Source: a virus
Lineage: Duplodnaviria > Heunggongvirae > Uroviricota > Caudoviricetes
Reading direction: 5' to 3' (one strand)
IMG/VR virus record: IMGVR_UViG_2974540528_000001
Coordinates: 1-33,168 of that record
Length of the DNA: 33,168 nt
Shown here: positions 6,524 to 30,577 of the stretch, one piece after another
How positions within the stretch are numbered: position 1 is the first letter of the stretch
How the letters are laid out: each line of letters starts with the position of its first letter
The notes under the pieces: model-generated
The model's database searches: none
What the model saw: the letters and a program-made list of their open reading frames with translations, nothing else
Told to the model about the DNA's origin: nothing
Translations under genes and position numbers: made by a program

Positions 6524-6536
6524 TAAAGGAGAGAAG

Positions 6537-7757
6537 ATGAGCGTAGTAAACGAATACAAAGACCCAATGTCCGGCAAAGTAAACCACTTCGCAAAGGGCA
6601 GCATCAAATTTGTCAGCATCAAGCCCGTAAAAGATGGCCCGAATGTTGTCAACGGTGTTAAGACCACCTACATCAAGGTTCCAGGTCAGCCTGACAAGAA
6701 GATCGAAGCAACCCACGTCATCAGCTTCCTGATGCAAGATGTTGACGACAATAACAATGTTATCGATCCGCAGAGTACAGGTCAGTGGATCAGCATGGGA
6801 GAGAAGAAGCTTCATGCTAACCATACTGACAAGGTGCAGGTGAAAATGGACAGCGGGTACAAAGATATCTTAGCAGGTATGGTTGTGTCCTTCCCTCTGA
6901 AAGTGTCTAAGAGTGGTGAAAACACCTACTACAACGGTACTCTGAGTGGTAAAGTGTTCAACATTTTGGATGAAAGCAAAGCGGGACAACCTGCCCCTCG
7001 TCAACAGCAATCTTCTGCCCCAGCAGCACAGTCAGGCGGTGGTATTAAGATCTACGGTGAGATTACCGAAATCGTAGGTAATCTGGCGACTGTTAATGAC
7101 GAGAAGAACGGCCCCGGCGGTGTAGTTCTTTCCGATGAACAATTGGCACAGGTATCTGTTGGTGGACGAATGACTGCCTTTGTGGATATGTCTAACGGTA
7201 ACATCCTGAATGGATTCAAAGCTTACGGCCCCGCAGGTCAGAACAACGGCGGTTCTGGTGCCAAAGGCAAACGTAGCAATTACGATCCTGTTGGTGTATC
7301 TGCTGGTCATGCCATGAATGCTCTGGTAAACCTGAAGCTGTCAGGCTTTAAGGGCGATGTGGAAGCGGCAGGCAAGATAGTGCATGATGTTACCACCAAA
7401 CTGATCAAGGAACTTTCAGAAGCTGAAGGTAAAGATGTTGGTCAGACCGTGGGTAACGCTGTAAAATATGCGGTGACGAACATTGCTGTCAAAGGAAAGA
7501 CCATCGATGCAGACGAGCTTGAGAAGGCCACACGCGAAGCGTATGCGCTTGCAGCGACGTTCTACAGCTATGCCAGTGCAACGGCACAGGAAGAGTCGCA
7601 GAAGCCGTCACAGCCCATTCAGGAGCGTTTAACGACACCTCCTGCTCAAGAGGCTCCGGCTATGGATTTTGATGAACCTCCGATGGACTTCGATGATGAT
7701 ATCCCCTTTGCTCCAATCGGACTGCCGTATGGTCGTAACTTCATCCACTGCATCTAA
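6537..7757 (+). CDS. putative single-stranded DNA-binding / recombination protein (406 aa)
   Basis: Start ATG 6537 after AAGGAG. Beta-rich N-terminal domains, Gln/Pro/Ala linkers, and near the C-terminus EPPMDFDDDIPF, identical to the enterobacterial SSB tail. The fold is not verified. Confidence 0.6.
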   Translation: MSVVNEYKDPMSGKVNHFAKGSIKFVSIKPVKDGPNVVNGVKTTYIKVPGQPDKKIEATHVISFLMQDVDDNNNVIDPQSTGQWISMGEKKLHANHTDKVQVKMDSGYKDILAGMVVSFPLKVSKSGENTYYNGTLSGKVFNILDESKAGQPAPRQQQSSAPAAQSGGGIKIYGEITEIVGNLATVNDEKNGPGGVVLSDEQLAQVSVGGRMTAFVDMSNGNILNGFKAYGPAGQNNGGSGAKGKRSNYDPVGVSAGHAMNALVNLKLSGFKGDVEAAGKIVHDVTTKLIKELSEAEGKDVGQTVGNAVKYAVTNIAVKGKTIDADELEKATREAYALAATFYSYASATAQEESQKPSQPIQERLTTPPAQEAPAMDFDEPPMDFDDDIPFAPIGLPYGRNFIHCI

Positions 7758-7805: not shown

Positions 7806-9564
7806 ACGGTCTTTGATAGACAGCTACATCATATACAGTCCCTCTTCCACAATAGGTTACTTGTAGAATTGTAACTGAATTTGCAGTAGTGCTGATCGCA
7901 CCACCATTTATGATTTTATAAGATGCATCAAGGGTGACGGCGTGTCCGCCAGTTGCATCCTGGAACAGATAGATCGTGGCAGTAAAAGCACTACCAAGAT
8001 TTGCCCAAGGCCCGATAGTTAAAGTATTTGTCACATCTACGTTGTAGATGTTATTCATCTTCGTCAGATCAGAACCTGTCCCTCCTGGTGTCCAAGTTGT
8101 CCCTGCGGAAGGTGTGGTAACAGAACCGGGGGTTGTTCCTACGAAATTCGCAGTGACCTTCGGAGCCGTCGCTTCACCTGTAATAACGAGGGAGGCACCT
8201 TTTAGAGATCCGTATGCCTCTATTGTGGTGGTTGCCAGAACGGAGTTAGGGTTAATGTCCTTCCCGTTGACATCAATGGAGACACCTGTCAGAGTCCCAA
8301 GTACGTTAAGGTTGTTTACGGTTGTTGTGCCTGTCCCACCATTATTCAGGTTAGCGTTTCCAGTAACTGTAAGGTTGGTGCTTACCGTAGCTTCCCCAGT
8401 GACTGCAAGCAGGCCTGTGATGGATAGATTTCCTGCAACAGAGCTGGCACTACCGGCTGTAAATCCTCCAGTTAATGTGCTGTTTCCATCGACTGTTAAT
8501 GAGCTTACTACACCCAGATCCTGAATAGTGGTACTTCCGAGAGTTGTTATACCATTCACAGTCAGATCAGAACCTATCTCGGCTGTTGTCGTTGTGACAA
8601 TGGAGTTGGGGAGAATGTCTAAACCATCAACCCCCACATTGACACCGGACAATGAACCAGTTACTCTTACGTTTTCAAGTTCTGTCGTTCCGGTTACCTT
8701 AAGTCTTGGTTCCGTAGAGGCCTTGGAAGAGTTCCCTCGGATATACACATAGTCGAAGGTGTTATTACCGACACCAGTTAATGACATTGTGGTGTTATCT
8801 GCACTAGCTGTCCCATTCACAATAACTGCGGAAGTCAGATTATTGGTTTGAACAGAGTTAGGAGATATGATAGTCTTCAGATAGTTAGAGGCAGCGGTGT
8901 AGTCAAAAGAAAGAGTGGCAGTTTGTCCAGATAACGAAATTTTCTGGAATTTACCAAGCACACCAGAGGCATCAAGCATCCCACCAAATTGGGATGTCCC
9001 AGAAACAACCAATGTGTTAAGGGTTGAAGCACCAACCACCGTAAGAGCAGCATAACTTGGAGAAGACCCAGCAAGAGAATTGATCGCTGCTGCGACAGCC
9101 AAGTTGACAAATGCAGTTGTCGCTATTGCACCACTATTACTTCCCTGAGCAGGGGTAGGCGCTGTCGGAGAACCGACAAATGCGGGTGTGTTAAGAGGTG
9201 CAAATTTTTCAGAAACCACAACGGAGTCATTGTAAACTTTCCAAGCGGTACTTGTGGACGGATCGGCAGGTAAAGTGATAGGTGTAGATGGTGACGCTCC
9301 TGGGGCATACCACCAGAAAGTCCCTGCTGAATTGGTGAAGGAATACAGTTGATTAAAAACTGTCGCCTGTGTACCAGCCACCCAAGGTTGTGGTGGTGTT
9401 TTAAAATACACATTGTCAAGAAGCGCTTTACGTAATGTTGGAATCGTGCTACCATCTTCTACAATAACAGTGTCGATCGCCGATCCGTTGACCACCTTAT
9501 GGAGACGCTCAGAATCCTCGATAACCTGATCCACAGCCTGTTCAAATTGTGTTGTATCAGCCAT
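7804..9564 (-). CDS. tail fibre protein (586 aa)
   Basis: Contains the tail-fibre motif FAPLNTPAFVGSPTAPTP...IATTAFV, Gly/Thr/Val-rich repeats (LTVNGITTL, LTVDGNSTLTG) and a beta-sandwich-like C-terminus; AAGGAG RBS. Confidence 0.85.
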   Translation of the reverse strand: MADTTQFEQAVDQVIEDSERLHKVVNGSAIDTVIVEDGSTIPTLRKALLDNVYFKTPPQPWVAGTQATVFNQLYSFTNSAGTFWWYAPGASPSTPITLPADPSTSTAWKVYNDSVVVSEKFAPLNTPAFVGSPTAPTPAQGSNSGAIATTAFVNLAVAAAINSLAGSSPSYAALTVVGASTLNTLVVSGTSQFGGMLDASGVLGKFQKISLSGQTATLSFDYTAASNYLKTIISPNSVQTNNLTSAVIVNGTASADNTTMSLTGVGNNTFDYVYIRGNSSKASTEPRLKVTGTTELENVRVTGSLSGVNVGVDGLDILPNSIVTTTTAEIGSDLTVNGITTLGSTTIQDLGVVSSLTVDGNSTLTGGFTAGSASSVAGNLSITGLLAVTGEATVSTNLTVTGNANLNNGGTGTTTVNNLNVLGTLTGVSIDVNGKDINPNSVLATTTIEAYGSLKGASLVITGEATAPKVTANFVGTTPGSVTTPSAGTTWTPGGTGSDLTKMNNIYNVDVTNTLTIGPWANLGSAFTATIYLFQDATGGHAVTLDASYKIINGGAISTTANSVTILQVTYCGRGTVYDVAVYQRP

Positions 9565-9575
9565 TTAAGGTCTCC

Positions 9576-9851
9576 TTATTTAATTTCTTGTTTATCTTCA
9601 TCTTCCGCTGCCTTTATAGCTAAACCCCAGCGAAGTGAGATTAGCTTGCTTATAAGTTGTGGAGCTGCTACAGTAGGTGCATATACCCACATGTACCATT
9701 CTGTAAGGGTCCCTTTAAATCCCCAGTACAGGAAAACAGCCGTCATGGATGCCAGTCCTATATTGCTCCAAAACTTGGTATGTGAGGCCTTATCAGGGTC
9801 TATAGGGGACCTGACTAAGTCCTTTAGGAACTTCATTATTCGAGTTGGCAT
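9576..9851 (-). CDS. holin-like small membrane protein (86-91 aa)
   Basis: Two TM segments with charged termini (...AAEDEDKQEIK). Start is ATG 9851 (after GAGGT) or ATG 9836. Holin function is inferred. Confidence 0.55.
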   Translation of the reverse strand: MPTRIMKFLKDLVRSPIDPDKASHTKFWSNIGLASMTAVFLYWGFKGTLTEWYMWVYAPTVAAPQLISKLISLRWGLAIKAAEDEDKQEIK

Positions 9852-9864
9852 TTTACCTCGGGGG

Positions 9865-10338
9865 TCAATAAGTGAAGAATGATAATGCCCTGGCAAGCAC
9901 CAACAGGCTTATGACAGTTGCAGTTTTTATCCATTCCTTTATCGTCGTGTCTTTAAAATTTGCACAAAGTATGATAATTTCCATCCAAGTTTGGTAGGAA
10001 GAATTTATTACAAAGTCAAAGAGTCCGGGGATTATTAACGGAAACTGCATGGATATTATCTGGCAGAAGAGAATTGGTACTGCTACAGAGAGTGTTAGCT
10101 TTTTCTTCCATCCCGATAATATACACGCAGCACCAAAGATAAAAGAGATATCCAGGAACCAACAAAGATTGAGGTAAAGAGATAGATCGAAAAACTGGGT
10201 GTTTGAAGAAAACCACCATAGAAGGGTATTCTCAAGAAAGATATGGACCATGCCAAGAACAGACATGATCCTTATACCTTTATCGGAATGAAACAACAAA
10301 ATAATAAAGCACAGGAAATAGAATACTGAGCTTATCAT
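9865..10338 (-). CDS. polytopic membrane protein (157 aa)
   Basis: About 5 hydrophobic helices; ATGA-coupled to the upstream gene. Confidence 0.75.
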   Translation of the reverse strand: MISSVFYFLCFIILLFHSDKGIRIMSVLGMVHIFLENTLLWWFSSNTQFFDLSLYLNLCWFLDISFIFGAACILSGWKKKLTLSVAVPILFCQIISMQFPLIIPGLFDFVINSSYQTWMEIIILCANFKDTTIKEWIKTATVISLLVLARALSFFTY

Positions 10339-10649
10339 TTTGCGGATCTCTCCATTAACATCTGGAACTGTTTGGTGAGATCTGTTCTTAAATCACCAAC
10401 ATCTCCCTTGATATCTCTTCTAAGATCTGAAACATCATCCCTAATCGCTTTTAACTTTTTATCCAAGATATCATCCAGCTTTTCTTTAGTGACCATTTCG
10501 GCCCTTATACGGATGATATCTTTGTCAAGCTCATCAAGGCGCTCTTGAGTCTTTTTGTAATCCGAGTACGTTATTCTTAGGACTCCGATCAGGACAAAGG
10601 TAATAACCCCCCAGACCGCCTTCAGGATAGCAAACAGGTCAATAGACAT
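10335..10649 (-). CDS. membrane-anchored coiled-coil protein (104 aa), possible lysis (holin/XhlA-like) protein
   Basis: Single N-terminal TM helix then heptad-like charged helices; AAGGGG RBS. Confidence 0.6.
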   Translation of the reverse strand: MSIDLFAILKAVWGVITFVLIGVLRITYSDYKKTQERLDELDKDIIRIRAEMVTKEKLDDILDKKLKAIRDDVSDLRRDIKGDVGDLRTDLTKQFQMLMERSAK

Positions 10650-10658
10650 AGTGCCCCC

Positions 10659-11138
10659 TTAGGCTGTCTGCGGAAGCTCTGGTTGAGGGTCTCCCTTGGT
10701 CCATCCTCTGAGATCGATGATATATTTCTTCATTGTCTCAACCTTATCTTCTTCACCCAGTGCAGCATAAGTTGATAGCAGTATCGCGGCCCTTTGGAAA
10801 AGTCCTTGTTTCTTATTTTCAAATATTCTGTCTTCCATCCAATCAACTTTTTCGAACTCTTCACCGTTAAAGATATGAGTTCTATTAGAGAAATCACTTG
10901 GAAGAGAATCTACAAAACGAAAGTAACAATCTTCGGGGAAGAATTTAGTTGGGTCAGTATCTACCATATAGACCTGGCCGTTAGAATCGTATTGAATATA
11001 TAGGCCTTTTTGTATTTCTTTCAGTTGAGATACGAAATCGTACCAATCTTGGCCTTTCTCATCTTTTAGATATAAGGCACCAGGAACTGCAACCTTTTCT
11101 GGAGAATATCTAACCCATTTCATATCAGTTATTTTCAT
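10659..11138 (-). CDS. tail fibre assembly chaperone (159 aa)
   Basis: TAATG-coupled start at 11138; W..Y.P....ALYLKDEKGQDWY and terminal W.....PELP pattern of Tfa-type proteins; directly follows a fibre gene. Confidence 0.75.
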   Translation of the reverse strand: MKITDMKWVRYSPEKVAVPGALYLKDEKGQDWYDFVSQLKEIQKGLYIQYDSNGQVYMVDTDPTKFFPEDCYFRFVDSLPSDFSNRTHIFNGEEFEKVDWMEDRIFENKKQGLFQRAAILLSTYAALGEEDKVETMKKYIIDLRGWTKGDPQPELPQTA

Positions 11139-12184
11139 TAAAGCCCCACTGTATACCAAATGCCATCAAGAGCTTTCTGTAAAAATCGGAATCTTATCTC
11201 ATCAATATCGTGCAGATAAAGGTCTCCACTGGCGTTTGCATCAATCAGACCAGTCAATACAGAACCGTCAGGTCCACGCGCCAAACGTCCGCTTGAACCA
11301 TAATTTTCAAAGTCAACTTGAACTTTGTTTTGCTCACCGCTCCAGCGAATGTCAGAAACACCAATACTGATGGAAACGTCACCATTGGCGTTTGCAGCGG
11401 TACTATTTACTGCACGAACAACGGATCTTCCACCAATTGTTGCGTTGTTGGAGTTTACTACGAGGTTTTGTAACGTAGCTGTACCACCAACACCAAGGCT
11501 GGTTGTCTGGATATTACCACCATTATTAATGGTTGTGGAAGAAACTGTACCTGTCGTGGTAGTTCCTGTTGCCGTAATATTCCCTTGCACCTTTAGCAGC
11601 GCCACGCCATTAGACGTTGCATTCAGTTCCATCATGTTGAATGGTGAAACTGTACCAGAGTTGTTTACAGGAACAAAGCGGAACCTCATGACATCTACAG
11701 TTGGTTGCCCCGCTGTTCCTACATTATCACCAATAACGAAGTCTAAATAGACTTGATCCGTACCCGTTGTGGTGGTGATATGAGCAGTATCGCTAGAATC
11801 AGAGGGGAATGTTATTCTGGGTACTGTTAGCGCGCCAGTCATTGTATCACCAGAAGCATTTACATACCGGGTATCACTTTCCCCCTTGCTGTAAACATCC
11901 AGAGTGCTTCTTGCCGTTGGGATATCAGATACATCGCTAAGGTTTTGATCTTTTCTCAGATAATCATTAGAGAGTCCTGGGATCTGCTCTTCTGAGATGT
12001 ACGTCATCCACCAGGTCATCATGTTAAGAACATAGTTAAGTTCTTCACAAGCGGGCTTCTCACCCAAATCCCAACCCTTATCCCAAAGATCAGCGATAGG
12101 GGAGATTTTATTTGCAGTGTGAGCATTAGGTAACACGACGTCACTTTCAGCCCATATCTGAAGAGGAATAGTAGGAATTGCCAT
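11138..12184 (-). CDS. baseplate-attached tail fibre protein (348 aa)
   Basis: N-terminal WA...KGWDLGEKPACEELNYVLN baseplate-anchor motif; YVNASGDTMTGAL fibre motif; located after the baseplate genes. Confidence 0.85.
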   Translation of the reverse strand: MAIPTIPLQIWAESDVVLPNAHTANKISPIADLWDKGWDLGEKPACEELNYVLNMMTWWMTYISEEQIPGLSNDYLRKDQNLSDVSDIPTARSTLDVYSKGESDTRYVNASGDTMTGALTVPRITFPSDSSDTAHITTTTGTDQVYLDFVIGDNVGTAGQPTVDVMRFRFVPVNNSGTVSPFNMMELNATSNGVALLKVQGNITATGTTTTGTVSSTTINNGGNIQTTSLGVGGTATLQNLVVNSNNATIGGRSVVRAVNSTAANANGDVSISIGVSDIRWSGEQNKVQVDFENYGSSGRLARGPDGSVLTGLIDANASGDLYLHDIDEIRFRFLQKALDGIWYTVGL

Positions 12185-12193
12185 GATTCTCCC

Positions 12194-12823
12194 TTATAAT
12201 AGTGTGTTCTCTTCTTCGGAGGTATAGATAAGACTGGATAGGCCACCAGGCCCTGTTCGCGATGTGCTTACAGACCCAAAACCAATTGCATAGGAATCGT
12301 TTTTAAACCCAAAAGGTAGTCCTTCTGATTTTACCAGTCGAAGGTACGTAGGCATAGGGAGCATATCTTTTATTTCTTGTATAGCGGTTTCTATCTCGAA
12401 ACAGCTATTAAATATATTGATATCAAAACGATAATTATCACCTTTGTAAGTGGTAAAATTCTCTGCCCCGAAGAGTTGCTTCAGCGTACCAATTACCTCA
12501 GGTCTGGTCCCGTGTTTAGCTGTGCTTGAGAGAAGGATTGTGATAATGGCACGATAATTCATATCACTCAAGCCATTTCTGTCAATCCCTACTTGAGCAC
12601 CAATCTCATCCAAGTTTACCCCCCCAGCATTCTGGAGGAGACGCCCTTCTGCAAGATTGACCATCATCTCATCTACAGCCTTCATTCGTTCCAAATACAC
12701 GGATAAAAATTTTACAAGGTTTTCTTTTTCTCGTAAAAAATCCCCAGGCAGGTAGTCGATACCGTCTGAAACGAAATTATCCAAGGGATGGATGTGGTTG
12801 ACATCTTTTACTGTATCTGCCAT
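12194..12823 (-). CDS. baseplate wedge protein (DUF2612-like)
   Basis: AGGVNLDEIGAQVGIDRNGLSD..YRA motif; follows baseplate J. Confidence 0.8.
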   Translation of the reverse strand: MADTVKDVNHIHPLDNFVSDGIDYLPGDFLREKENLVKFLSVYLERMKAVDEMMVNLAEGRLLQNAGGVNLDEIGAQVGIDRNGLSDMNYRAIITILLSSTAKHGTRPEVIGTLKQLFGAENFTTYKGDNYRFDINIFNSCFEIETAIQEIKDMLPMPTYLRLVKSEGLPFGFKNDSYAIGFGSVSTSRTGPGGLSSLIYTSEEENTLL

Positions 12824-12831
12824 AATCCCTC

Positions 12832-14325
12832 TTAGATTATCTGTAGGAATGTTATATTATCAGTATCGATAGAGAATACTTCATCCATCCCTGCAACAAC
12901 ATCAGAGGTTGTATAAGAAGTATCAGGATCCCCGACGTTCTTGACATCCACATAAAGTTGTGTAAATCTACCCGCAGAGATAGAAGAACCTACAGCAGAT
13001 ACAAGCTGGATGTTGTATAAGGTGTCAGCAATGTTAAGCGGGTCAATAACCCCTTTGAGAGCGGACTTTATAGTATCCTGTTCAGTGGTTGAGAGGACCT
13101 TTCCCTTATAACGGACACGGATAGCCAAATCCCTTGCCTGTGCCTTGCTGTGATAAATTCGTTCTGTCTGATTATCCTCAGTGGGGACATCATAAAAAAC
13201 ATTACCATAGGTAGCGTTAGACAAAGCAATTGAATTATAAAGTGCCTTACTGATGTCCTCAGTAGACCCACCATACACCACTGTCTCAAACTTGTGCGGG
13301 GGTATCCCGTTCTGGTCTGTAACCCCTGTGTTATTTGAGAAGATTTTAACCTTACTTACACCACTCACGCCAAGGACAGCACTCACCACCGCAGGTCTGG
13401 TCGCAGCAGCACTCGATGCTGTTGTGTTAGAAGCCCTGACCTTGTATTCGGTGTCGGTCTCAACATCTGTGCCCTCCGTGAAGGCATTCATGTTGTTAAG
13501 GCTGACGAACCCACTAGGGGTTGGGGAGATCGAAGTTACTGTATTTTTCTCTCGCGACAGTTCACCTGCCTCGACAGCAACAACATCCATTGTGATTGTA
13601 CGCTCACCAACAATCGGCGATGTTCTGAAATCAACACGGCTATTAAGGCCGATCATTTCAAGATTAGTATCATACCCAATGTACAATGCCCCGTTTTGAG
13701 AGTCAATGATGATTCTATCATTATTAAGCTCGGAGGTATTGTTGACAATAAAGCTCTTGACAGATGCCATGAAAGTGTTAAGCTGAGAGCTATTAGGGGT
13801 TTTATTGGTCAGTTGAATGGTTGTTTGACTTGTTGTTCCGGTGTTTTGATTATTGATCTGGAAACTATAAGTGCCTACAACCCAGTCCTTATTGAGAATT
13901 TTTTGTGCCAGTATGTTACCAGCAAGGGCGGTGTCGTCATTTAATACAAATGTACCACTATCAAGTGTATATGTGTTTTGGGCATATACCATGTTGTAAG
14001 GGACAGTGTTGTTAACTGCCATCTCAACAGAACCTGAACTTTTTGTCTTTCCTCGACGATAAACACCCCTTCGGGAAAGAAGTTCGTCAAGATAAATACC
14101 CTCAGCCCCCGCAAGGGTCTGAGCAGAATAGACGGAAGCTGCCAGAAGGATAATCTGGTATTCCCTTTCGTTAAAAATTGTTGTCAACTTGTCAGCAATT
14201 GTGTTAGCTTGTGTGTTGAAATTTTCACCAAAAGTTCTGATAAGGGTCTGTTTTGTGTCTGCGATAAGGTCATCAAGAGAGGGGATAGTGAAACCGTAAT
14301 CGCTCAATCCATATTGAGTTGCCAA
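12832..14325 (-). CDS. baseplate J-like wedge protein (497 aa, TTG start)
   Basis: AEGIYLDEL, G.DVETDTEYKVR, LGVSGVSKVKIFSN.TG..D.NGIPPH.FE.VVYGG are baseplate J motifs; AAAGGAGG RBS before TTG. Confidence 0.9.
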   Translation of the reverse strand: MATQYGLSDYGFTIPSLDDLIADTKQTLIRTFGENFNTQANTIADKLTTIFNEREYQIILLAASVYSAQTLAGAEGIYLDELLSRRGVYRRGKTKSSGSVEMAVNNTVPYNMVYAQNTYTLDSGTFVLNDDTALAGNILAQKILNKDWVVGTYSFQINNQNTGTTSQTTIQLTNKTPNSSQLNTFMASVKSFIVNNTSELNNDRIIIDSQNGALYIGYDTNLEMIGLNSRVDFRTSPIVGERTITMDVVAVEAGELSREKNTVTSISPTPSGFVSLNNMNAFTEGTDVETDTEYKVRASNTTASSAAATRPAVVSAVLGVSGVSKVKIFSNNTGVTDQNGIPPHKFETVVYGGSTEDISKALYNSIALSNATYGNVFYDVPTEDNQTERIYHSKAQARDLAIRVRYKGKVLSTTEQDTIKSALKGVIDPLNIADTLYNIQLVSAVGSSISAGRFTQLYVDVKNVGDPDTSYTTSDVVAGMDEVFSIDTDNITFLQII

Positions 14326-14360
14326 TTCGTCCTCCTTTCAGGACCATGATTCTTTTGTAT

Positions 14361-14389
14361 ATTTTACCATACGTGACAGTGTTTTGCAA
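14361..14389 (-). promoter_or_regulatory. sigma70-type promoter with extended -10
   Basis: On the - strand: TTGCAA, 17 bp, TAAAAT preceded by TGG. Confidence 0.75.
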
Positions 14390-14413
14390 ATAAACGGAGG
14401 AAGGGCATAAATG

Positions 14414-14437
14414 AAAAAACCACCCCGGAGGGTGGTT
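14414..14437 (-). terminator. rho-independent terminator
   Basis: On the - strand: AACCACCC-TCCG-GGGTGGTT-TTTT, overlapping the stop codon of the 275-aa gene. Confidence 0.85.
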
Positions 14438-15263
14438 AGTTGCCGGACAAAGAATCTTCCAAGACTGAAAGGCGCTTGTCCAAGTCCTCCTGAATTACAA
14501 TGGTTGCTCTAAGTATCCAAAATAAAAGCTCTTCTTTTCTAAAAGCGAACTCTTCTCCTGCCGGGGTATTCCCATTCGCCTCCCAGCTATCGTAGCAGAA
14601 AGCTGAATACTTTGTCCAATCAAGACCATACTTGAGCATGACCTTAATAGCATCCTGCACAGTAGGTCCTGAGTGAAGCCTGGCAGCACCCTTCTCAGAA
14701 GAATACTTAGACAACCATTGCCATACAGAGTCTAGCTTCCCAATTTCATAAAAAGCTTTTGCTTCTGTAGGTGTAATTTGTCGAAGATTTGTTTTCTTCT
14801 TTTTATTTGAGGTGGAGATCACACTGTTAACTGCATACACTTGACTCCAACGCAGGGATGTTGTACCGTTGGACAGTACATTATCTGTCTTGGGAGAAAA
14901 GGATGCTGAAGGAGTTGATATCTGAACTCCATAAGTTCTTTGCACAGGACTTATAGAAATGGTATCAACATGTGATCCAATCTCATTCCCGGTGGTGGAG
15001 AAATAGTATAAATTCTGCCAACTATTAGAAAGACTGTCCAAAACTTGCTGGACAGTGGCCCCTGAGTGGGTTCCGATAAGAGATGCACCGGTGATCCCAG
15101 TCACCTCACCCCTTTTCAGGATGCCGATGTCTGTAATAAATTTTCGTATAGTTGTTTTCTCTGTGTCCAAAGATGATTGGATTATTATCTCATCCGTGTC
15201 GGAAACTAATTCTTTATCATTAAGGTTTTTTATCTTAATGATTGGTATATCAGTAGTGGCCAT
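14436..15263 (-). CDS. short tail-spike-like protein with C-terminal peptidase S74 intramolecular chaperone domain (275 aa)
   Basis: N-terminal module shared with the other spikes, then FSPKTDNVLSNG..SLRWSQVYA..SVISTSNKKKK, W.W..K...KG.ARLH.G, GLD...Y...CYDSW...AGEEFAFR.EELL and a terminal coiled coil, as in endosialidase-type ICDs. Confidence 0.8.
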   Translation of the reverse strand: MATTDIPIIKIKNLNDKELVSDTDEIIIQSSLDTEKTTIRKFITDIGILKRGEVTGITGASLIGTHSGATVQQVLDSLSNSWQNLYYFSTTGNEIGSHVDTISISPVQRTYGVQISTPSASFSPKTDNVLSNGTTSLRWSQVYAVNSVISTSNKKKKTNLRQITPTEAKAFYEIGKLDSVWQWLSKYSSEKGAARLHSGPTVQDAIKVMLKYGLDWTKYSAFCYDSWEANGNTPAGEEFAFRKEELLFWILRATIVIQEDLDKRLSVLEDSLSGN

Positions 15264-15310
15264 TTTTCAATCTCCAAATCACTCCCAAGAAATGTTAGTA
15301 GGCGGGGCGT

Positions 15311-15332
15311 AAAAGGGGCATCTCTGCCCCTT
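15311..15332 (-). terminator. probable rho-independent terminator (GAGA tetraloop)
   Basis: On the - strand: AAGGGGCA-GAGA-TGCCCCTT-TT just after the large spike gene; preceded by a T10 run. Confidence 0.7.
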
Positions 15333-15346
15333 GAAAAAAAAAACAT

Positions 15347-18300
15347 TTACGATATAACCCTCCCTCTCACTATCTGATGCACAAAGTAAGACGACAGCAT
15401 CTCAATCATCACTCTGTTATGGCTTGAGACAGTTGTTGGCATACCCGTCGCAAGACGTGGAGAGTGGTCATAAAAACGCCCTGATGAATAAGGATTAGCC
15501 AGGAAATCCTTTTCATATGCCTGAATACAGGCAAGCAGGGCATTACCGGTAGATACTCGTCGAACCAGCATCATTGTCAACGCCACACTAACTGGAGTTG
15601 AGATAATACCTCTACGACTTTCAGAAAGAATGAAGTCAATGGTGCGAATACGCCCATCACCACACAAACCCTGAAGTCCGTAGTTGACGTTGTTAAACAG
15701 AGGCGTTCCACCAAGTAACTCAGTCATCATGAGGTATTCAGGTGCCAGATCTATATCATAATTGTACCAACGGCTACGAGCCAATGACGTACTAACTGGC
15801 ATTGAATCCAGCATAGATGGTAAATAACGCCCAACGGTACTGCTATTAGTTAGGTTAGTCATCACCGTGTTATAGCACGACTGGTACGAACCATCAGTGT
15901 CCATTTCAGCGTGAATTGCTAGTGCTACAAGCATCATACTGTATATGTTGATGTTTACTGCATCACTGACAGAAGCTGACGTATACGTATTTGGCACACC
16001 CCCTTTTGCTGCGACTGCCGTCACCATCGCATCAGCCCAAGATTTAATATACGGTTGCATGGCCGTCATCGTTGTAGTATCACCAACGAACTCAGCTGCA
16101 CGATAGATAGAAACACAAGGCTTGAATACAGTAGCCACTAAGTCAGCTACATGCAGTACACCTTCTAAATATCGCGTTCCGATATTTGTGCTACGCCAGT
16201 TATCATCCCAGCACCGTTTAAATCTTGCCCATACTGCCGAAATATTAGGAGACGGCTTTTGCAGTTCACGATACGCAAGATATCCCCACGGGGTCTTCGC
16301 ATCATACTGTCCAGCATTCACATCCATACCACCGATCCCGGCTGAATCACCATTCATCCAGAAGTCAGCCACACCTTCAAGCAATTCACGAAGTTTACGC
16401 TCTGCTTCTTTAACTGCAAAGTTTGGAAGTTTGCCCTCACGAGCAAAACCAACCGGGCGGTTATAAACTTTCTTCGCAAGTGTCAGCGGGTCAGATTCTG
16501 TTTCATAGGCATTCAGCCAAATCTCGATTGGCCACGTCCAGTTTTTCTCTACTGGCCAGTTCAGTAAAGAGTAGTCAGTAAAGGAGTAGAATTGCCACCC
16601 GGTTGTGACACCTAGTGTCAAAGTCTGTGAATTATTGGTCATGGATATACCAGCAGTTCTTGTTGGCCCACCAGCTGTACCATCCCTATGTAAGTCACCA
16701 TTTACAATGGTAGGTACATAAGAGAATTTACCACCACCAGCAGTATTACCATTGGTAATTGCTGCTGCTGCTGATCCTGCATAGACAGGGGTTGTCCCGG
16801 ACTGATATGCAATATTTGAGCTAATGGTTTCGCCATACATTTTACCAACAGGGATTTCCTGAAGCGCTGTAACCGTATTCTTAACGATGACCACACCGTT
16901 CTTAAAGATACGATACCGTGTAGTGGCTTTAAGAATACCAGCCTCATAAATGGCACTGGCAGCATTGTAACCAATACGTTCAACCTCGGTAAAAAGTGGA
17001 CCGGAATTGATGACCTTCAGCGTAACGTTATTGGAGAAATACTCGATAACCTGAGCACCTGCGTTCACATAGCGATGCTGTGGGCTAAGTGTGCATCTGA
17101 TACGGTTGGTATCGTCATTTTTAGCAGCATCAATGGATGTAAGGCCATAAGCTCCACCAGCAAAAGCAAAACGATAATACAAATCGCCTACTTTAATGTT
17201 ATAACGCTTCAAGGCATCAGTAGGTGCATAATATTCAAGCCCCTCTGTATAAACAGTATCGTCGTAACGATAACCATAAATATCAACGTTATAATATTTC
17301 TTTTGACCTGCTGCTACAGAGTCAACGATCCATACTGAGCCAGTTTTGAACGATCCATCGGGGTGATAACCTTCATTTGACTGAAAGCGAAGGTTAACGA
17401 AGTCATCAGCAGAGAACTGAGCATCGAACACATTTCCATCTGAATCAGAAACCTTAATGCAGTTATGTCCATAGACCAAGCCTTCAGGGAAACTTACCTT
17501 TAATTCAATAAGCCCACTATAGTCAGCCGAGGTATCATTTGCTGCATCCGTAACAAAACGAGTAAATGGATTGTTATCAGACTCTAAACGAGAGATCCCA
17601 TTGTAATAAAGGATATCAGCATCAATGGTCAGATAAGCATTTACAGAAATGGTTACAGGTTCAGCACCTAATTTTGCCAGGAAAGTTGTTTTATACTGTG
17701 AAACGTCTGTACTTCTGTAATACAGATTGACATCATCAAAAGAATCATAGAAGTAGGATTTCACCCCTTCCTCTGTAAGGTCGTATCCAGCCCCAGTGAT
17801 AGCAGAATACGGGAATGTCAACGCAATCGCCGTTTCGCTCGGGGTACTACTACCATATAATGCGCAGTAGTTGCCATCAGTTCCATATTCACCAGGTGCC
17901 GCTGAAATAAACCCACCGGACTTATCAATAACAGCATAAGAAGTGATCGAGCTATAGGTATTGATAAGCGGAACATTAGTAAAAATTGCTCGGGCAACTG
18001 AATTGGTCGCATCAAGCAGCACTGTTTCAGGTCTTATTTTTGCCAACTGTACTGAGTGATAAGGTGAGTTCAGAACGTTGTCAGCGAAATATTCCGCAGG
18101 AAGCAATTCAGCTACAACAGTGGTTACACCACTTTGCAGCTCTGTAACTTTCAAAGTATTTTTCTGGTTACGGGCGTTTGACGTTTCAGCAGCGGACAGG
18201 GAGTTAATGCGTAAAACGGATTCTTTACCTACATTAACTACAGTGTCACCAGGTGCGGTAATGCTTGTAAAGGAAGTCAACGGGAGTGAGGAAAATTCTC

Positions 18301-19276
18301 CAAGTAAAGCATTGGTTCCACTAATCTTACCATCCAGCTCACTATAAGATTTATTTACTCTGTTTTCAACACCTGCTTCCGACGGTATTCTTGCTCCCGT
18401 TTCTTTCATCGTTCCTGAGGCGTTTATCACCTCTACAGAGAGCACGTTATCATCGGTGCTGCGGTAAAATGCAGTAGAGCCAACCAGAATATTTCCAGCG
18501 TCCGCATCAGCCTGCGCTGCCTCTAATGTTTCATATCCCCGGATAGTCTTTATAATCGCCCCAGCACTAGGTACAGCCGCAACTTCTTGAGCAACCCCTG
18601 CATTATTCTTGTAAACTTTGAACGCTACAGAACTACCACTTCCCTGAGGGACTTGGAAATATTGCCCATCCGTAGTTGCAGCAAGACCTTCACTAACAGA
18701 GGCATATAAGTTTCCCAGCTCAGAGGCCTGCAATACATATGCCTGAGCCTCATCTCTCGCATCCCCTGCTTGGTCTTTTGCCTCAACTGCTTCATTTTTG
18801 ATCTCGGTTACTTCATCTAGCAGACTTAGTCCGCCAACCGTAATCCATCCAGATCCTGTAGTGGATGGTGTTAACCCAGCAGACACAGATTTTGGAAAAG
18901 TACCCGACCATGTGTAACATTGCGCCCCCGACATATGCCAAATAGCATCGGTTGTGTAGGTAAGGGTCGCTCCTTCCTCAAAAGAACCGTCCACAAGTGT
19001 CAAACCAAGGTCGTGCAGTGCTCTTCTCCAAAGCTCTCTTGTGTTTGCGCGGTCGGTATCAAGACTCTTCTGAACTCCCTGTCCATCTTCTGTGCCGATA
19101 ATAGCAGCCCCACCAAGTCCTGTCAAGGATGATTTATTTGCCAAGTCAAGGTCTGAGATAACCTGAAAGGCAGTGGCCTTTTTGGTCTTATCTGGTTGTT
19201 CTACAACAAGGTAGTCGTCTCCGACCACTTGGGTTGCGGAGGGTAACTCCGCAATTTTAATTGTATCAAAGGCCAT
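15347..19276 (-). CDS. large tail spike / receptor-binding protein, putative polysaccharide-degrading enzyme (1309 aa)
   Basis: True start ATG 19276 (GGAGGG RBS). Has the N-terminal KIAELPSAT module, a tailspike head domain (RELWRR...LVDGSFEEGATL...YTWSGTFPK), YASVSEGLAATTDGQYF and YETLEAAQADADAGNI repeats typical of enterobacterial phage spikes, and a large C-terminal beta plus alpha-helical region. Confidence 0.85.
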   Translation of the reverse strand: MAFDTIKIAELPSATQVVGDDYLVVEQPDKTKKATAFQVISDLDLANKSSLTGLGGAAIIGTEDGQGVQKSLDTDRANTRELWRRALHDLGLTLVDGSFEEGATLTYTTDAIWHMSGAQCYTWSGTFPKSVSAGLTPSTTGSGWITVGGLSLLDEVTEIKNEAVEAKDQAGDARDEAQAYVLQASELGNLYASVSEGLAATTDGQYFQVPQGSGSSVAFKVYKNNAGVAQEVAAVPSAGAIIKTIRGYETLEAAQADADAGNILVGSTAFYRSTDDNVLSVEVINASGTMKETGARIPSEAGVENRVNKSYSELDGKISGTNALLGEFSSLPLTSFTSITAPGDTVVNVGKESVLRINSLSAAETSNARNQKNTLKVTELQSGVTTVVAELLPAEYFADNVLNSPYHSVQLAKIRPETVLLDATNSVARAIFTNVPLINTYSSITSYAVIDKSGGFISAAPGEYGTDGNYCALYGSSTPSETAIALTFPYSAITGAGYDLTEEGVKSYFYDSFDDVNLYYRSTDVSQYKTTFLAKLGAEPVTISVNAYLTIDADILYYNGISRLESDNNPFTRFVTDAANDTSADYSGLIELKVSFPEGLVYGHNCIKVSDSDGNVFDAQFSADDFVNLRFQSNEGYHPDGSFKTGSVWIVDSVAAGQKKYYNVDIYGYRYDDTVYTEGLEYYAPTDALKRYNIKVGDLYYRFAFAGGAYGLTSIDAAKNDDTNRIRCTLSPQHRYVNAGAQVIEYFSNNVTLKVINSGPLFTEVERIGYNAASAIYEAGILKATTRYRIFKNGVVIVKNTVTALQEIPVGKMYGETISSNIAYQSGTTPVYAGSAAAAITNGNTAGGGKFSYVPTIVNGDLHRDGTAGGPTRTAGISMTNNSQTLTLGVTTGWQFYSFTDYSLLNWPVEKNWTWPIEIWLNAYETESDPLTLAKKVYNRPVGFAREGKLPNFAVKEAERKLRELLEGVADFWMNGDSAGIGGMDVNAGQYDAKTPWGYLAYRELQKPSPNISAVWARFKRCWDDNWRSTNIGTRYLEGVLHVADLVATVFKPCVSIYRAAEFVGDTTTMTAMQPYIKSWADAMVTAVAAKGGVPNTYTSASVSDAVNINIYSMMLVALAIHAEMDTDGSYQSCYNTVMTNLTNSSTVGRYLPSMLDSMPVSTSLARSRWYNYDIDLAPEYLMMTELLGGTPLFNNVNYGLQGLCGDGRIRTIDFILSESRRGIISTPVSVALTMMLVRRVSTGNALLACIQAYEKDFLANPYSSGRFYDHSPRLATGMPTTVSSHNRVMIEMLSSYFVHQIVRGRVIS

Positions 19277-19296
19277 TTTTTGCCCTCCAAGAAGTT

Positions 19297-19325
19297 TATT
19301 TAGAGTAGTCAATGATGACTGTCAA
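19297..19325 (-). promoter_or_regulatory. possible sigma70 promoter for the large spike gene
   Basis: TTGACA, 17 bp, TAAATA on the - strand; perfect -35, imperfect -10. Confidence 0.4.
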
Positions 19326-19474
19326 TAGTTGTTAAAGCTTTGCATGGCAAAGATGGGCCATCATATCTGCTACGGCAGGTTTTTCTTCACTAATCATTGC
19401 AGGCTATAGCCGGTGTGAATCTTTGCGTATGTCATATATTACCTATGATTATTCACTATATGACTTAATAATCA

Positions 19475-19741
19475 TTATGATAGATAAACCTGTAAGGCGC
19501 GCTCTGCTTCAGATATTATATTACTGAGATCGATGAACTCAAAAGAAAATAGCCCGTTACCTGTTTGCTCAACGCCTTGGACTGATGTTGTATAGGTTAC
19601 TGTTGCGCTATTTCCGCGAATATCTGTAATACCGACAACAGTGTAGGTAACTTCAATGTTTTCAACTTCAGCAGGGCAGGTTATACCAAGCCCTGGGATC
19701 TGTTTAAACGTATTAAATTGTTTATTTAATGTAAATGACAT
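19475..19741 (-). CDS. small spike-associated protein (88 aa), possible chaperone/accessory subunit
   Basis: Starts 1 bp after the depolymerase stop; beta-rich. Resembles small ORFs I recall downstream of Klebsiella phage depolymerases. Confidence 0.6.
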   Translation of the reverse strand: MSFTLNKQFNTFKQIPGLGITCPAEVENIEVTYTVVGITDIRGNSATVTYTTSVQGVEQTGNGLFSFEFIDLSNIISEAERALQVYLS

Positions 19742-19742
19742 A

Positions 19743-21563
19743 TTATACCCCGTTCACTCTTGAAATTTCAGTCCACCCCTGACGAAACGCAAAGTTTGTC
19801 GCCATGAGAGTTATCGTACACGCCGCAGTTACTGCACCACCAGGTAGGAATATATTCCCGCCCGTAACCAGGCGGTTTGCCGTATCAGGACAACGAACAA
19901 CCATCTTCTTACCAGTATGGCAGTAACCAAGGCTGCTAACTAAACCACTGGCCTGGAAAACGTATCCCTCATCTATGCCAATGGGGTCGTATCCACTAAC
20001 CAGTGAGCCAACGGCGTTCTGATTGTTTTGTAACTTCAGTACAATCTTGGATTTTCTCCGTGACTCGGTAGTCATATCAGCATTAACATGAATCAAGCCT
20101 GTAACCGCCCCCTGCTGCTGTTTGACTGTAATGTCAGCCTTGACACTTGAACCAGTGACATTAAACAAGGCAGTCTGGTTTGCTGCTGTAATAGTTCCAA
20201 GCACTGTCAGGTCATCGATGGTCACTTGGCAATCGTATAGAATATCAATGAACCTGTTTGGGTCTGCCACTCTCGGTGCCTTAATGTTCACTACGGCATC
20301 ATTTTCGATACTAATCGGAGCAACCCCATTATCACCTAGTCCATTGACATGCATCATGTCGATGTCGATAACGGCACCCACGCAGCGAGTTGCAGAAACC
20401 CAGTTATCACGGTGTATCCTGAACCATTTTTTTGCAGTTTGCCCTGAAGTATCCGAAGGACTCATGTAAGAACCACCGCGTAATGATAAATGACGCGAGT
20501 TGCTTTCAATAAACCATTCGGTGATGTTCGCCGGGTGGCTGACAAACGGATTATCTATTTTGATAGATTCTGCCAACGTGCCATTGATGGATACGACTGG
20601 GTATTTAGCTCCAGAAGCCGCACCTCTAGAGTTATTCTCAAATTTAGGCATAGATGTAAATGCGATGTTGTTTGACCGCCCAGTAATCGAAATAACGCCA
20701 GTAAGGTTGTTCTCAAAATGAGGTGCAATGAATCTGATAGCGTTGCAGTTATCGTATTTCCCTCTGAACATGATGGGATGTGTAAAGATATCACTAGCAT
20801 TAGCTGGATTATGTAGATTACCACAACTGTTGATACGTAAGTTATAGAACTGAGTATCAAAAAGGTCATCAGCAACGATAGCAGAAAGCCCAGCACTCCA
20901 TACATGTACCGTATCAAAAACACAATCCCAACCAACACCACCCAGATAAAACACCGGGCGTAAAGTAACGCCATCACCCAGGAAAGTAAAGTTTCGCAGG
21001 TGAACTTCAAATAAGGTTCTTGTGGCGTTGCTTACCCATGATGGGCTGGAGAAATCGAAGAAGTACTTATATTGCAGCTCAGAAGAATTTGCTTCTGGGT
21101 GCGGAGTGAATACGGTCTGATACATCCCTGACCCTTCCCAGTACACAGTACCTTTTGTGACTTTTACCGTTTGTTTTAGGTAGTATTTTTTAGCCGCAAA
21201 CCTGATCCCTACGCGTGGGGCGCGAGTGGTGGTTCCGCTGTTAATTGACTCAGCAAAATTTACTGCGGCCTGGAATGCTATTGCGTCGTCGTAAACACCG
21301 TCCCCTTTGGCTCCAAACATTTCAAGAGTGACCCAGTAAATGGCGTCTGCAACCGTACCTCCTTTCGGTAAACCCACCTTACTCGCTCCATCAGGCTGGG
21401 CCAAAGCCGCCAGCACCGACTGTTCAACGGTATCTTCAAGGTGGCTAAAAACTTGAAATAAAGTTGCCTTCTTTGTATTGTCTGGTTGATCAACTACGAT
21501 CAGGTCATCTTCTGTTAGAGTGGTCGCACTTGGCAACTCTGAAATTTTAACACTCTGTAGCAT
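19743..21563 (-). CDS. tail spike depolymerase with parallel beta-helix (pectate-lyase-3-like) domain (606 aa)
   Basis: VTLEMFGAKGDGVYDDAIAFQAAVN is the canonical beta-helix N-cap; followed by Asn/Ile/Val ladders; N-terminal KISELPSAT module. Confidence 0.9.
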   Translation of the reverse strand: MLQSVKISELPSATTLTEDDLIVVDQPDNTKKATLFQVFSHLEDTVEQSVLAALAQPDGASKVGLPKGGTVADAIYWVTLEMFGAKGDGVYDDAIAFQAAVNFAESINSGTTTRAPRVGIRFAAKKYYLKQTVKVTKGTVYWEGSGMYQTVFTPHPEANSSELQYKYFFDFSSPSWVSNATRTLFEVHLRNFTFLGDGVTLRPVFYLGGVGWDCVFDTVHVWSAGLSAIVADDLFDTQFYNLRINSCGNLHNPANASDIFTHPIMFRGKYDNCNAIRFIAPHFENNLTGVISITGRSNNIAFTSMPKFENNSRGAASGAKYPVVSINGTLAESIKIDNPFVSHPANITEWFIESNSRHLSLRGGSYMSPSDTSGQTAKKWFRIHRDNWVSATRCVGAVIDIDMMHVNGLGDNGVAPISIENDAVVNIKAPRVADPNRFIDILYDCQVTIDDLTVLGTITAANQTALFNVTGSSVKADITVKQQQGAVTGLIHVNADMTTESRRKSKIVLKLQNNQNAVGSLVSGYDPIGIDEGYVFQASGLVSSLGYCHTGKKMVVRCPDTANRLVTGGNIFLPGGAVTAACTITLMATNFAFRQGWTEISRVNGV

Positions 21564-21683: not shown

Positions 21684-22298
21684 TTATTTTATGGTGTTTA
21701 TCGTCTTATCAGCGGGGGTGACTACCGGATCACTTTTTCTGGTCAGAAGGGTCCCTGGTGGTACAGGGTTTGCCATATCACCCGCCCAAGTATTCCACCA
21801 AGTTGCATCACCAGTCTTAGGTAATCTAAAATTGATAAGGTAGTATAACTTATTCCCCCAAGGTATCCAACCCTCATCTCCGCAAAGTGTTGTTGTTTCA
21901 GGGTTTGGCGTCGGGTAGTAGTAATCATCAGCACCCACGAAGGCTATTCTTACAATCTCCTGCTCTTTTGTTAAGACTTCAAAAAAGGCAGAATAGCTTC
22001 TTGTTGTATGGTCCATTACAGACTGGAAATCTGCAATTTCTAAAACATCCGGTTCAAGACGGGTTATTTCCTTTATCTTATTATCAAGGACCGTCTTCAT
22101 AACTTTTTTACTTATGTAGGTTCTGTATGGAAATCCAAAGGTCTCATCAAAATACCAATCCCCTGCCCACACATTAAACCTTAGCCATAAGCGCTGTCGT
22201 AGACTTACCTGATTGGATTCTATCAACTGGAGGCCTGTAGAAACATCAAGATCTCCAGTAACAGGATCCATCAAGAAGTCAGAATAAAGAGTTGCCAT
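21684..22298 (-). CDS. baseplate wedge subunit (gp25/gpW-like) with C-terminal extension (204 aa)
   Basis: DPVTGDL...RQRLWLRF..WAGDWYFDETFGFPY pattern; follows the spike gene. Confidence 0.8.
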   Translation of the reverse strand: MATLYSDFLMDPVTGDLDVSTGLQLIESNQVSLRQRLWLRFNVWAGDWYFDETFGFPYRTYISKKVMKTVLDNKIKEITRLEPDVLEIADFQSVMDHTTRSYSAFFEVLTKEQEIVRIAFVGADDYYYPTPNPETTTLCGDEGWIPWGNKLYYLINFRLPKTGDATWWNTWAGDMANPVPPGTLLTRKSDPVVTPADKTINTIK

Positions 22299-29080: not shown

Positions 29081-30577
29081 TTACACTCCTGCTGTTACTT
29101 GTCCGCTGGAAGAAGTAGACCCGGTTTTGTCTAGCAGAACAGAGATGCGGATCTTGACGAAATGCAGGGCGCTGTTGTAGACTAGCTCTACCTTAACGTT
29201 GTTAAGAGTACGAGATGCCAGATCATTAGATGGTATGTTTGCACGAAGCGGGATTGTTACAACCGGATCGTAGAACACCTTGTTGACGGAATCATACCCG
29301 GTCAGAATAGAACCGTTGGTGATACCGGTATTCAGAGGACTATTCATCAGGACTGACTTCAGGTTCGGCAGATCATCATCGCTCATTTTCATGGACAGGC
29401 CAAGATTAGAACGGCGAGACATGTAAGCGAAGATACTTTCTTCACTTCTGAACTTCAGCCAGTGACCAAAACGGACAACATCGACATACTGACCGGAGGC
29501 ACACTTACCTTCCCAGAATGCGCCGACACCATTAATCATACGATAGAAGTTCAGGTTCTGGCCCCAGATAGCTGGACGCTCAGAAGAACTCAGGGTCGGA
29601 GCAATAACACCCGGCATTGTCTTCAGGTGGATTGAGTCACCATAGGATGGGTCATTAGATGCCATTGCACCGATGATACCACCTTCAGGGAATGCACTAT
29701 CAGCAAGCGGGTCATACATACCAATGCTAGTATCATACTGAAGTGCTTTCAGTTGATTAGCAATAGAATCTCCGTCGACAACTTTTGACAGCGGATCGGA
29801 TGTTGAATAGACGTGCAGCTTATAGTTAGCAGCAGCATAAGCAGCAGCTCCCAGAATTGCAGAAGAAACGTGTTGTTCTGTGCTCAGGAAGTACCAGTTG
29901 CTGTTTGCAGTTTCGACCTGTGGTAGAACACCGCTTACAGTCTCAGTTGAGTTGTTAGTCAGTGTGCAATCACCTGAGTCAATACCGATGCTGAATGGCT
30001 CGCCGATAACATCAGAAGATGTTGCCATGATGCCTTGGTCAGATTCGGTTGTAACCACCTCATCATCGTTAGTAGCCAGCAGAGAGCCATCACCTTTCGG
30101 AGTGATTGTTACAACACCAGTTGTAGCTACTGCACCGACAATTACATTAAGCGTGGTATCGGAGTTGATTGCAGATGCCAGGGCTGTTGCAATACTCTCT
30201 GGTGTAGATGCGGTAGTAACAGGAATAACGATGCTTTTAGTATACGCACCTGCTGCAACGTTGAAACTTACTGGGTTATTAGGATCTACGTTAGTCTGCC
30301 CTGTGAAATCGATAACTGTTGATTCCCATGCTTGCCTTCCGATCATAAGCGCTTGGGGGCGGAAAGTCCCAGCAAAGGCTTTTGTCGCAAAAGTATACGC
30401 AGGGGAACCTACAGCGAAACCATCAGCAGCGAGTTCATCCAGATCTGTATATGTACGTACTCGTTCTGGGAAAACGTTGTGAATTGCGATAAATAGAGGG
30501 GTTTCAAACCCTACGGTGTCGATTGGTTGTGTCCCGAGAACAACCGTTACGTCAACAACCTTATCATTATAAGCCAT
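29081..30577 (-). CDS. tail sheath protein (498 aa, DUF3383-like)
   Basis: VGFETPLFI...ERVRTY..., K.MPGV...LS, G..ASGQYVDVVRFGHWL, IP...DLASR.L...V...Y..A.H.V.I are contractile sheath motifs. Confidence 0.93.
   Translation of the reverse strand: MAYNDKVVDVTVVLGTQPIDTVGFETPLFIAIHNVFPERVRTYTDLDELAADGFAVGSPAYTFATKAFAGTFRPQALMIGRQAWESTVIDFTGQTNVDPNNPVSFNVAAGAYTKSIVIPVTTASTPESIATALASAINSDTTLNVIVGAVATTGVVTITPKGDGSLLATNDDEVVTTESDQGIMATSSDVIGEPFSIGIDSGDCTLTNNSTETVSGVLPQVETANSNWYFLSTEQHVSSAILGAAAYAAANYKLHVYSTSDPLSKVVDGDSIANQLKALQYDTSIGMYDPLADSAFPEGGIIGAMASNDPSYGDSIHLKTMPGVIAPTLSSSERPAIWGQNLNFYRMINGVGAFWEGKCASGQYVDVVRFGHWLKFRSEESIFAYMSRRSNLGLSMKMSDDDLPNLKSVLMNSPLNTGITNGSILTGYDSVNKVFYDPVVTIPLRANIPSNDLASRTLNNVKVELVYNSALHFVKIRISVLLDKTGSTSSSGQVTAGV

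Follow-up and report, generated by a model that had tools for sequence, protein, structure and literature searches.

A short N-terminal element shared by three spike genes of an rV5-like myophage, with a probable role in docking and spike exchange

Introduction

Why do three neighbouring spike genes of one phage, unrelated over most of their length, begin with similar N-termini? This question was raised by the viral record IMGVR_UViG_2974540528_000001, of which we analyzed a stretch of 33,168 nucleotides (positions 1 to 33,168; hereafter the window), the first 33 kb of a 147,443-bp genome. The nearest genomes were those of Klebsiella phage DP (94-97% nucleotide identity in the aligned parts) and of Seu621/KpS8 (93%), and by their sequences these phages and the source phage are assigned to the genus Mydovirus of the Vequintavirinae, i.e. 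to the rV5-like myophages. The three genes encode spike proteins of 606, 1309 and 275 amino acids (aa), and we call their positions slot A (19743-21563), slot B (15347-19276) and slot C (14436-15263). Coordinates are those of the window, and all window features described here lie on the minus strand.

An earlier note on this DNA had read the shared N-termini as a single two-part module, a reusable plug that docks interchangeable spikes on equivalent sites of the virion and serves as the junction for domain swapping. Our analysis separated the two parts. The first, block 1 or the plug, probably docks the spike on the virion, and its coding DNA would double as a homology arm for cassette exchange. 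The second, block 2, belongs to the exchangeable body of the spike.

Results and discussion

Three spike proteins share an old N-terminal element

Block 1 extends over approximately aa 4-45, and its core was located at aa 4-38 of the slot A protein (21450-21554), aa 5-39 of the slot B protein (19160-19264) and aa 8-42 of the slot C protein (15138-15242). Block 2, with the pattern GAxxIGxxxGxxVQxxL, was found at aa 59-75 in slot A (21339-21389), at aa 56-72 in slot B (19061-19111), where it runs into a helix at aa 67-89, and at aa 59-75 in slot C (15039-15089). The sequences quoted in the earlier note for the two blocks were correct, and BLASTP and profile comparison agreed that the three genes share both.

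The N-termini of the 606-aa and 1309-aa proteins were 46% identical over aa 2-75 (E 6e-13), and those of the 1309-aa and 275-aa proteins were 33% identical (E 4e-9). The 606-aa and 275-aa proteins showed only 21% identity (E 0.025), and this weak pair was therefore joined through the 1309-aa copy and by the profile. Past approximately aa 80, BLASTP detected no significant similarity among the three proteins, and the downstream domains were unrelated as had been claimed: a beta-helix in slot A, a Tail_spike_N domain with a large body in slot B, and an S74 domain in slot C. When a hidden Markov model (HMM) of the module was compared with the 1711 six-frame open reading frames (ORFs) of the 147-kb genome, these three genes alone matched.

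The plug DNA of slots A and B was 60% identical with a longest exact run of 8 nt, and identity was 40-43% for the A/C and B/C pairs. Of the 25 residues identical between the A and B plugs, 13 were encoded by different codons, in agreement with the synonymous differences described earlier. Because the plug peptides are alike while their DNA and codons have diverged, the copies are old paralogues held alike at the protein level and no recent duplicates. For slots A and B, conservation of the peptide at diverged synonymous sites indicated selection on the peptide.

Block 1 is N-terminal and follows the virion type

A profile search with block 1 against 1.84 billion representatives returned 100 clusters at E<=1e-3, nearly all matching at residues 1-80. 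Among 172 plug-bearing proteins with a length of at least 150 aa, the plug began at or before aa 15 in 168 (98%). A second profile search gave 141 longer proteins in which the same N-terminus was joined to more than 10 different enzymatic domains, including pectate-lyase, beta-helix, SGNH/GDSL, SASA, alginate-lyase, sialidase, S74, NAGPA, GDPD and others (partner Pfam families PF12708, PF13229, PF13472, PF03629, PF05426, PF13884, PF13088, PF09992, PF03009 and PF15892).

When the 80-aa module of the 1309-aa protein (blocks 1 and 2) was searched by tblastn among deposited phages, 106 records were found, and the matches listed were all from rV5-like myophages of 135-156 kb except for one 63-kb record. 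The plug-bearing myophage genera were Mydovirus, Seunavirus, Phapecoctavirus and relatives. Across subfamilies, the block 1 motif persisted at the N-terminus at 35-45% identity. An HMM search of phage proteins had been proposed in the earlier note as a check, and its outcome was a widespread, N-terminal element found mainly in rV5-like myophages.

True N-terminal homologues of block 1 were present in phi92 endosialidase gp143 and gp140, rV5 gp43, PVP-SE1 gp050/gp048 and the tail spikes of Phapecoctavirus. These homologues share the position of the cassette, between a gp25-like gene and a wedge gene. Those rV5-like phages have two plug genes, whereas members of the genus Mydovirus have three to five, including a conserved S74 short fibre. 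In phi92 the plug was found in gp140 (157 aa; 6239-6712 of the phi92 locus) and in gp143 (11765-14521), and it was absent from the colanidase gp150 and from gp151. The PVP-SE1 record annotates gp048 as N-terminally similar to rV5 gp43, and the phi92 record labels the gp151 N-terminus as a potential capsid-binding domain.

No model of Pfam or NCBIfam covered block 1 (aa 1-48), and a search of the ESM Atlas gave unnamed short clusters only. The sole BppL_N match (E 0.0032) came from one distant member and probably lies outside block 1. Weaker matches to block 1 occurred in unrelated tail-fibre-like proteins, some of them in tandem, and weak plug matches were found in Erwinia jumbo, Aeromonas, Cronobacter and Erythrobacter phages. 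Two or three tandem N-terminal block-1-like copies were observed in the metagenomic tail-fibre-like proteins P0052, P0054, P0060, P0063, P0093, P0098 and P0094; no relatives of P0052 were found among viral contigs.

Block 2 moves with the body

The view of the two blocks as a single module was not borne out. A profile built from the three sequences matched PDB entries in block 2 only and gave nothing for block 1. The block 2 matches were internal, at aa 138-295 of solved tailspikes (Shigella phage B2 Gp48, K64-ORF41 (8x8m), 7xy1, 9lna and Sf11 gp13). With a loose pattern, block 2 was found to follow the plug in about half of the plug proteins and was absent after the others.

The body of the slot A protein was found in podo-, sipho- and Ackermann-type phages without block 1. 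From aa 60, block 2 included, it was 65% identical in the podoviruses Dlv622 and Pone, and from aa 88 it was 48% identical in Menlow-type, sipho- and other podoviruses; the plug was missing in every case. Slot A aa 1-64, on their part, were about 80% identical in Mydoviruses with other bodies. Because body and block 2 recur without the plug, and aa 1-64 recur with other bodies, block 1 tracks the virion type and block 2 tracks the body. On this evidence block 1 follows the virion type independently of receptor specificity, and block 2, a neck motif of wide occurrence that precedes the enzymatic body, is a part of the exchangeable body.

In a separate observation, aa 37-122 of the 606-aa spike, which span the linker helix and block 2 together with the first rungs of the beta-helix, were 55-65% identical to tail proteins of Klebsiella phages of about 48 kb (KpV79 type and Uqbar). 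The neck segment itself is therefore mobile.

Plugs are specific to slots and bodies are exchanged behind them

The locus was compared with six Mydovirus loci, PVP-SE1 and ukendt. Over the first 50 residues, mean identity within slots was 87% for A, 89% for B and 79% for C, and identity between slots was 49% for A-B, 22% for A-C and 27% for B-C. In the tree the plugs grouped by slot and not by phage, with a support of 97/100 for clade A and 96/93 for clade C. Some relatives (VLCpiM5b and KpS11) bear a fourth plug gene.

In cryo-electron microscopy (cryo-EM) of phi92, the wedge holds fibres I and III at separate points, and fibre II is mounted on the base of fibre I (PMC13450770). The fibres attach there to the wedge protein gp145 (PMC13450770), a homologue of the 497-aa wedge subunit in the window. 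Since the plugs are old, slot-specific and strongly diverged paralogues, equivalent docking sites are unlikely; equivalence was the weakest part of the earlier reading.

In slot A, aa 1-45 were 84-89% identical in five Mydoviruses with unrelated bodies, and identity was about 20% beyond aa 80. DNA homology to relatives ended at aa 39, 47, 48, 58 and 75, placing the swap junction at aa 39-75 in all five comparisons, with only the plug conserved. In slot B, DNA homology ended at aa 226-263 in five phages. The region that is kept there when the body is swapped, aa 1-235 (18572-19276), contains the plug, block 2, a TSP1-like domain, a coiled coil and a beta domain. In slot C no swap was observed and the whole protein was conserved. 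The module is therefore a domain-swap junction in slot A, as the earlier note had claimed, but not in slot B, where the junction lies behind further domains, nor in slot C. In the same way, the idea of a reusable module with interchangeable spikes held for block 1, which is strictly N-terminal and conserved within slots while the bodies change, but block 2 is not part of it.

The swapped pieces ended distally either in the intergenic stretch that precedes slot B or 4 nt ahead of the slot C start codon, and thus conserved sequence, the next plug included, flanks each cassette. The plug-coding 5ʹ ends and short intergenic stretches showed 83-97% DNA identity between related phages in most comparisons; for the slot B arm, the value was 70-78% in the two most distant relatives. 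Given this high identity within slots, the plug-coding 5ʹ ends and intergenic stretches probably act as homology arms, and the receptor-binding bodies, from one plug to the start of the next gene, would be exchanged as cassettes. The phage of the window is a mosaic, with a slot A body like that of Seu621/KpS8 (92% aa identity) and a slot B body like that of DP (92-99% aa identity), and the cassettes therefore assort independently. Replacement of the K23 spike in a Mydovirus by laboratory recombination has been reported (bioRxiv 10.1101/2024.10.29.620800).

Probable docking by block 1 and its predicted structure

From the N-terminal position of block 1, its conservation pattern and its analogy to known systems, we infer that residues 4-45 or so form a small N-terminal docking element, which would tie receptor-binding proteins to the rV5-like myophage tail and would be specific to the virion type and not to the receptor. 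Each of the three paralogues most likely has a site of its own or one tuned to it, and one of these sites may be on another spike instead of on the baseplate. Block 2 would be a separate neck motif that moves with the enzymatic body.

The plug was modelled with AlphaFold2 (AF2) in slot B aa 1-240, with a predicted local distance difference test score (pLDDT) of 74, and in the whole slot C protein, with a pLDDT of 54 overall and 75-85 over aa 11-50. The predicted plug fold was alike in the two independent models, with an extended N-terminus, a beta-hairpin (aa 22-35 in slot B and aa 25-38 in slot C) and a short helix. A further helix was predicted to begin in block 2 in both slots.

Short N-terminal elements with a comparable role are known from other phages. 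The secondary spike of KP32 is no longer incorporated when its first 29 residues are removed, and with this peptide a foreign endosialidase is taken into virions (PMC13352976). The likeness lies in a short N-terminal element which, in KP32-type phages, is needed for incorporation and is portable to a foreign enzymatic body. These are, however, podoviruses with a 29-aa peptide and a known partner, whereas three paralogues coexist here. Homology between block 1 and the conserved peptide at the N-terminus of KP32gp38 was considered and rejected (BLASTP E 2.0).

CBA120 (TSP1-4) and G7C (gp63.1/gp66) also have several spikes per virion, and slot B has a domain like the N-domains of TSP1, TSP3 and gp63.1. 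Block 1, however, precedes that domain and by sequence matches none of their solved structures, and slots A and C lack the domain. In Sf11, the N-terminal helices of gp13 bind to the adaptor helix of DTP gp17, so that a tail protein grips a short spike N-terminus through a short element of its own (PMC12724387, PDB 9occ). That contact is a four-helix bundle, whereas a beta-hairpin and a short helix are predicted for the plug, and the matches of gp13 are confined to block 2 and the PF18668-like domain.

Several points weigh against docking by block 1. The block 1 profile had no match in PDB up to E 10, and no match to the plug fold was found by Foldseek with the slot B model or by VIA with the slot C model; the former matched the TSP1/TSP3/gp63.1-like domain only and the latter S74 only. 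The AF2 confidence of the plug was 59-85, and the models are monomeric for a protein that is expected to be trimeric. The plug of slot C is the least conserved part of its protein (71-76%). Because slot B keeps 235 residues, its plug may be insufficient by itself. Whether Mydoviruses carry three plug genes or four, their gp25-like proteins are near-identical and their wedge genes are 95% identical in DNA.

Alternative explanations

The main explanation has a variant to be taken seriously, on which the last two points bear: the spikes would branch from the conserved N-terminus of slot B. One plug protein or none would touch the baseplate, and the others would dock by their plugs onto slot B aa 1-235, in the manner of the secondary spikes of KP32, G7C and CBA120. 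Slot B alone retains the TSP1/gp63.1-like domain, the coiled coil and the beta domain behind the plug, and the near-identity of the gp25-like proteins and the 95% DNA identity of the wedge genes in phages with a fourth plug gene fit this arrangement. So does phi92, whose fibre II is joined to fibre I at the base of the latter, with the plug-bearing gp143 assigned to the distal end of fibre I (PMC13450770). The slot B N-terminus, however, had no similarity to the T4gp10-like branching region of KP32gp37; it has a PF18668-like domain. In addition, PF18668-type domains occur in both docking and docked partners of CBA120 and G7C, which makes the direction ambiguous. We regard a branched assembly as a tentative possibility.

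In a further reading, the plug would be a widespread, uncatalogued docking mini-domain with uses well outside the rV5-like phages, as hinted at by the tandem copies in metagenomic tail proteins and by the weak matches in other phages mentioned above. The Mydovirus sheath protein (29081-30577) has a 29-residue insertion at aa ~162-190 (SLLATNDDEVVTT...), which PVP-SE1 lacks. The gp25-like protein resembles this insertion in its C-terminal tail (GTLLTRKSDPVVT), with a 17-residue tag kept in both, although the pairwise E of 0.36 is not significant. The plug would then bind the short tag on the gp25-like sheath initiator and the sheath insertion, and one spike, for example the 275-aa S74 fibre, would decorate the whole sheath. 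We consider this doubtful.

Block 1 could also be a tag for folding, for trimerisation or for an assembly factor, and no docking surface. Its small size and N-terminal position are compatible with such a tag, as are the tandem copies in some distant proteins (P0052, P0063 and P0094). The same bodies, however, occur in other phage families without block 1, block 1 tracks the virion lineage and not the body type, and slot C already owns the S74 folding chaperone, all of which make a tag very unlikely. Finally, there is little to recommend the view that the shared N-termini are remnants of duplicated genes, favoured as recombination substrates and with no function of their own: high DNA identity within slots does provide homology arms, and a preprint interprets short stretches of identity at the N-terminus as substrates of recombination (10.64898/2026.05.12.724579), but the paralogous peptides are kept at diverged synonymous sites with no exact run above 8 nt, and the motif persists across subfamilies, always at the N-terminus.

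The three spike proteins and their locus

The slot A protein consists of the plug, a linker helix, block 2 and a pectate-lyase-like beta-helix. It was 92% identical to the K23 spike of Seu621/KpS8, and its body scored 24.5 bits against PF12708, under the cutoff of 27. The body is a putative K23-type capsule depolymerase with a pectate-lyase-like beta-helix. Directly after this gene lies an ORF of 88 aa (19475-19741) that belongs to phrog_7836, a family of unknown function. This ORF travels with the slot A body, being present in Seu621 and absent from DP, and could encode an assembly factor or an accessory protein. KpS11 has an ORF of 72 aa at its position.

The slot B gene encodes 1309 aa when read from the ATG, with GGAGGG 8 nt upstream. 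The domain resembling the N-domains of CBA120 TSP1/TSP3 and G7C gp63.1 (PF18668) occupies aa 86-167 (18776-19021). The Pfam match to PF18668 (Tail_spike_N) at aa 109-160 scored 39.7 bits against a cutoff of 25 and did not cover block 1; it was the only one among the three proteins, as slots A and C had none. The domain matched PDB 8x8m with an E of 7e-18, and Foldseek matched its model to 6nw9, 4oj6, 4qnl and 9d84. For the C-terminal ~1070 residues (15347-18570) no Pfam match was obtained; they fall in phrog_20877, of unknown function. The slot B gene is annotated as two overlapping ORFs of 332 and 774 aa in KB57 (locus 8001-11278) and as two ORFs of 134 and 522 aa in VLCpiM5b (locus 9001-11280); a frameshift or a sequencing error could account for this, or the spike could be truly split.

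In the slot C protein the plug is divergent and is followed by block 2, a short body and an intramolecular chaperone of the S74 type; unlike the other two spikes, the protein is kept throughout the genus. The Peptidase_S74 domain at aa 152-212 (14628-14810) scored 35.4 bits in Pfam against a cutoff of 22, and VIA matched its fold to T5 pb1 4uw8 (Z 5.8) and to 3gw6 (Z 5.3). The self-cleavage region is likely STSNKKKK at aa 150. If S74 cleaves near Ser-150/152 in this motif, the mature slot C protein would have only about 150 residues, consisting of the plug, the neck and a very short body.

The three-gene spike cassette sits between the gene of a gp25-like sheath initiator of 204 aa (21684-22298), which is only a candidate docking partner, and that of the 497-aa baseplate wedge subunit, the phi92 gp145 homologue (12832-14325). 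Around the cassette, the module of tape-measure, hub, spike and wedge genes is otherwise conserved. A terminator-like hairpin with an 8-bp stem followed by a T-run was found at the end of the cassette (14418-14437). This terminator after slot C was the sole exception in the window, where promoter and terminator counts were at chance level.

Implications for rV5-like phages

The principle of an N-terminal anchor with a swappable body is not new. It has been validated experimentally in other phages and has already been published, including for sets of Klebsiella phage receptor-binding proteins with Mydovirus among them. Latka et al. reportedly described in 2019 an N-terminal chassis and a plug-and-play model of Klebsiella phage receptor-binding proteins. 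The same principle is presented in an N-terminal chassis/plug-and-play preprint whose data include Mydovirus receptor-binding proteins (bioRxiv 10.64898/2026.05.12.724579); the block 1 motif, the slot-specific paralogues and the separation of blocks 1 and 2 are not described in the part of it that we consulted. More generally, the parts of the literature that we read contain no delimitation of the motif, no separation of the two blocks, no slot-specific paralogy and no differing positions of the junctions.

On the mounting of lateral fibres in phages of the rV5/phi92 type, the BASEL paper describes the genes behind each lateral fibre as unclear (PMC8594841), and in the phi92 cryo-EM study of 2026, fibres I and II could not be modelled (PMC13450770). 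Our findings constrain how fibre maps and spike exchange are read in these phages: block 1 alone is specific to the virion type, its paralogues are specific to slots, and phi92 gp143 and gp140 carry it. The plug of gp140 and gp143 may therefore help to assign the unmodelled fibres in the cryo-EM maps of phi92.

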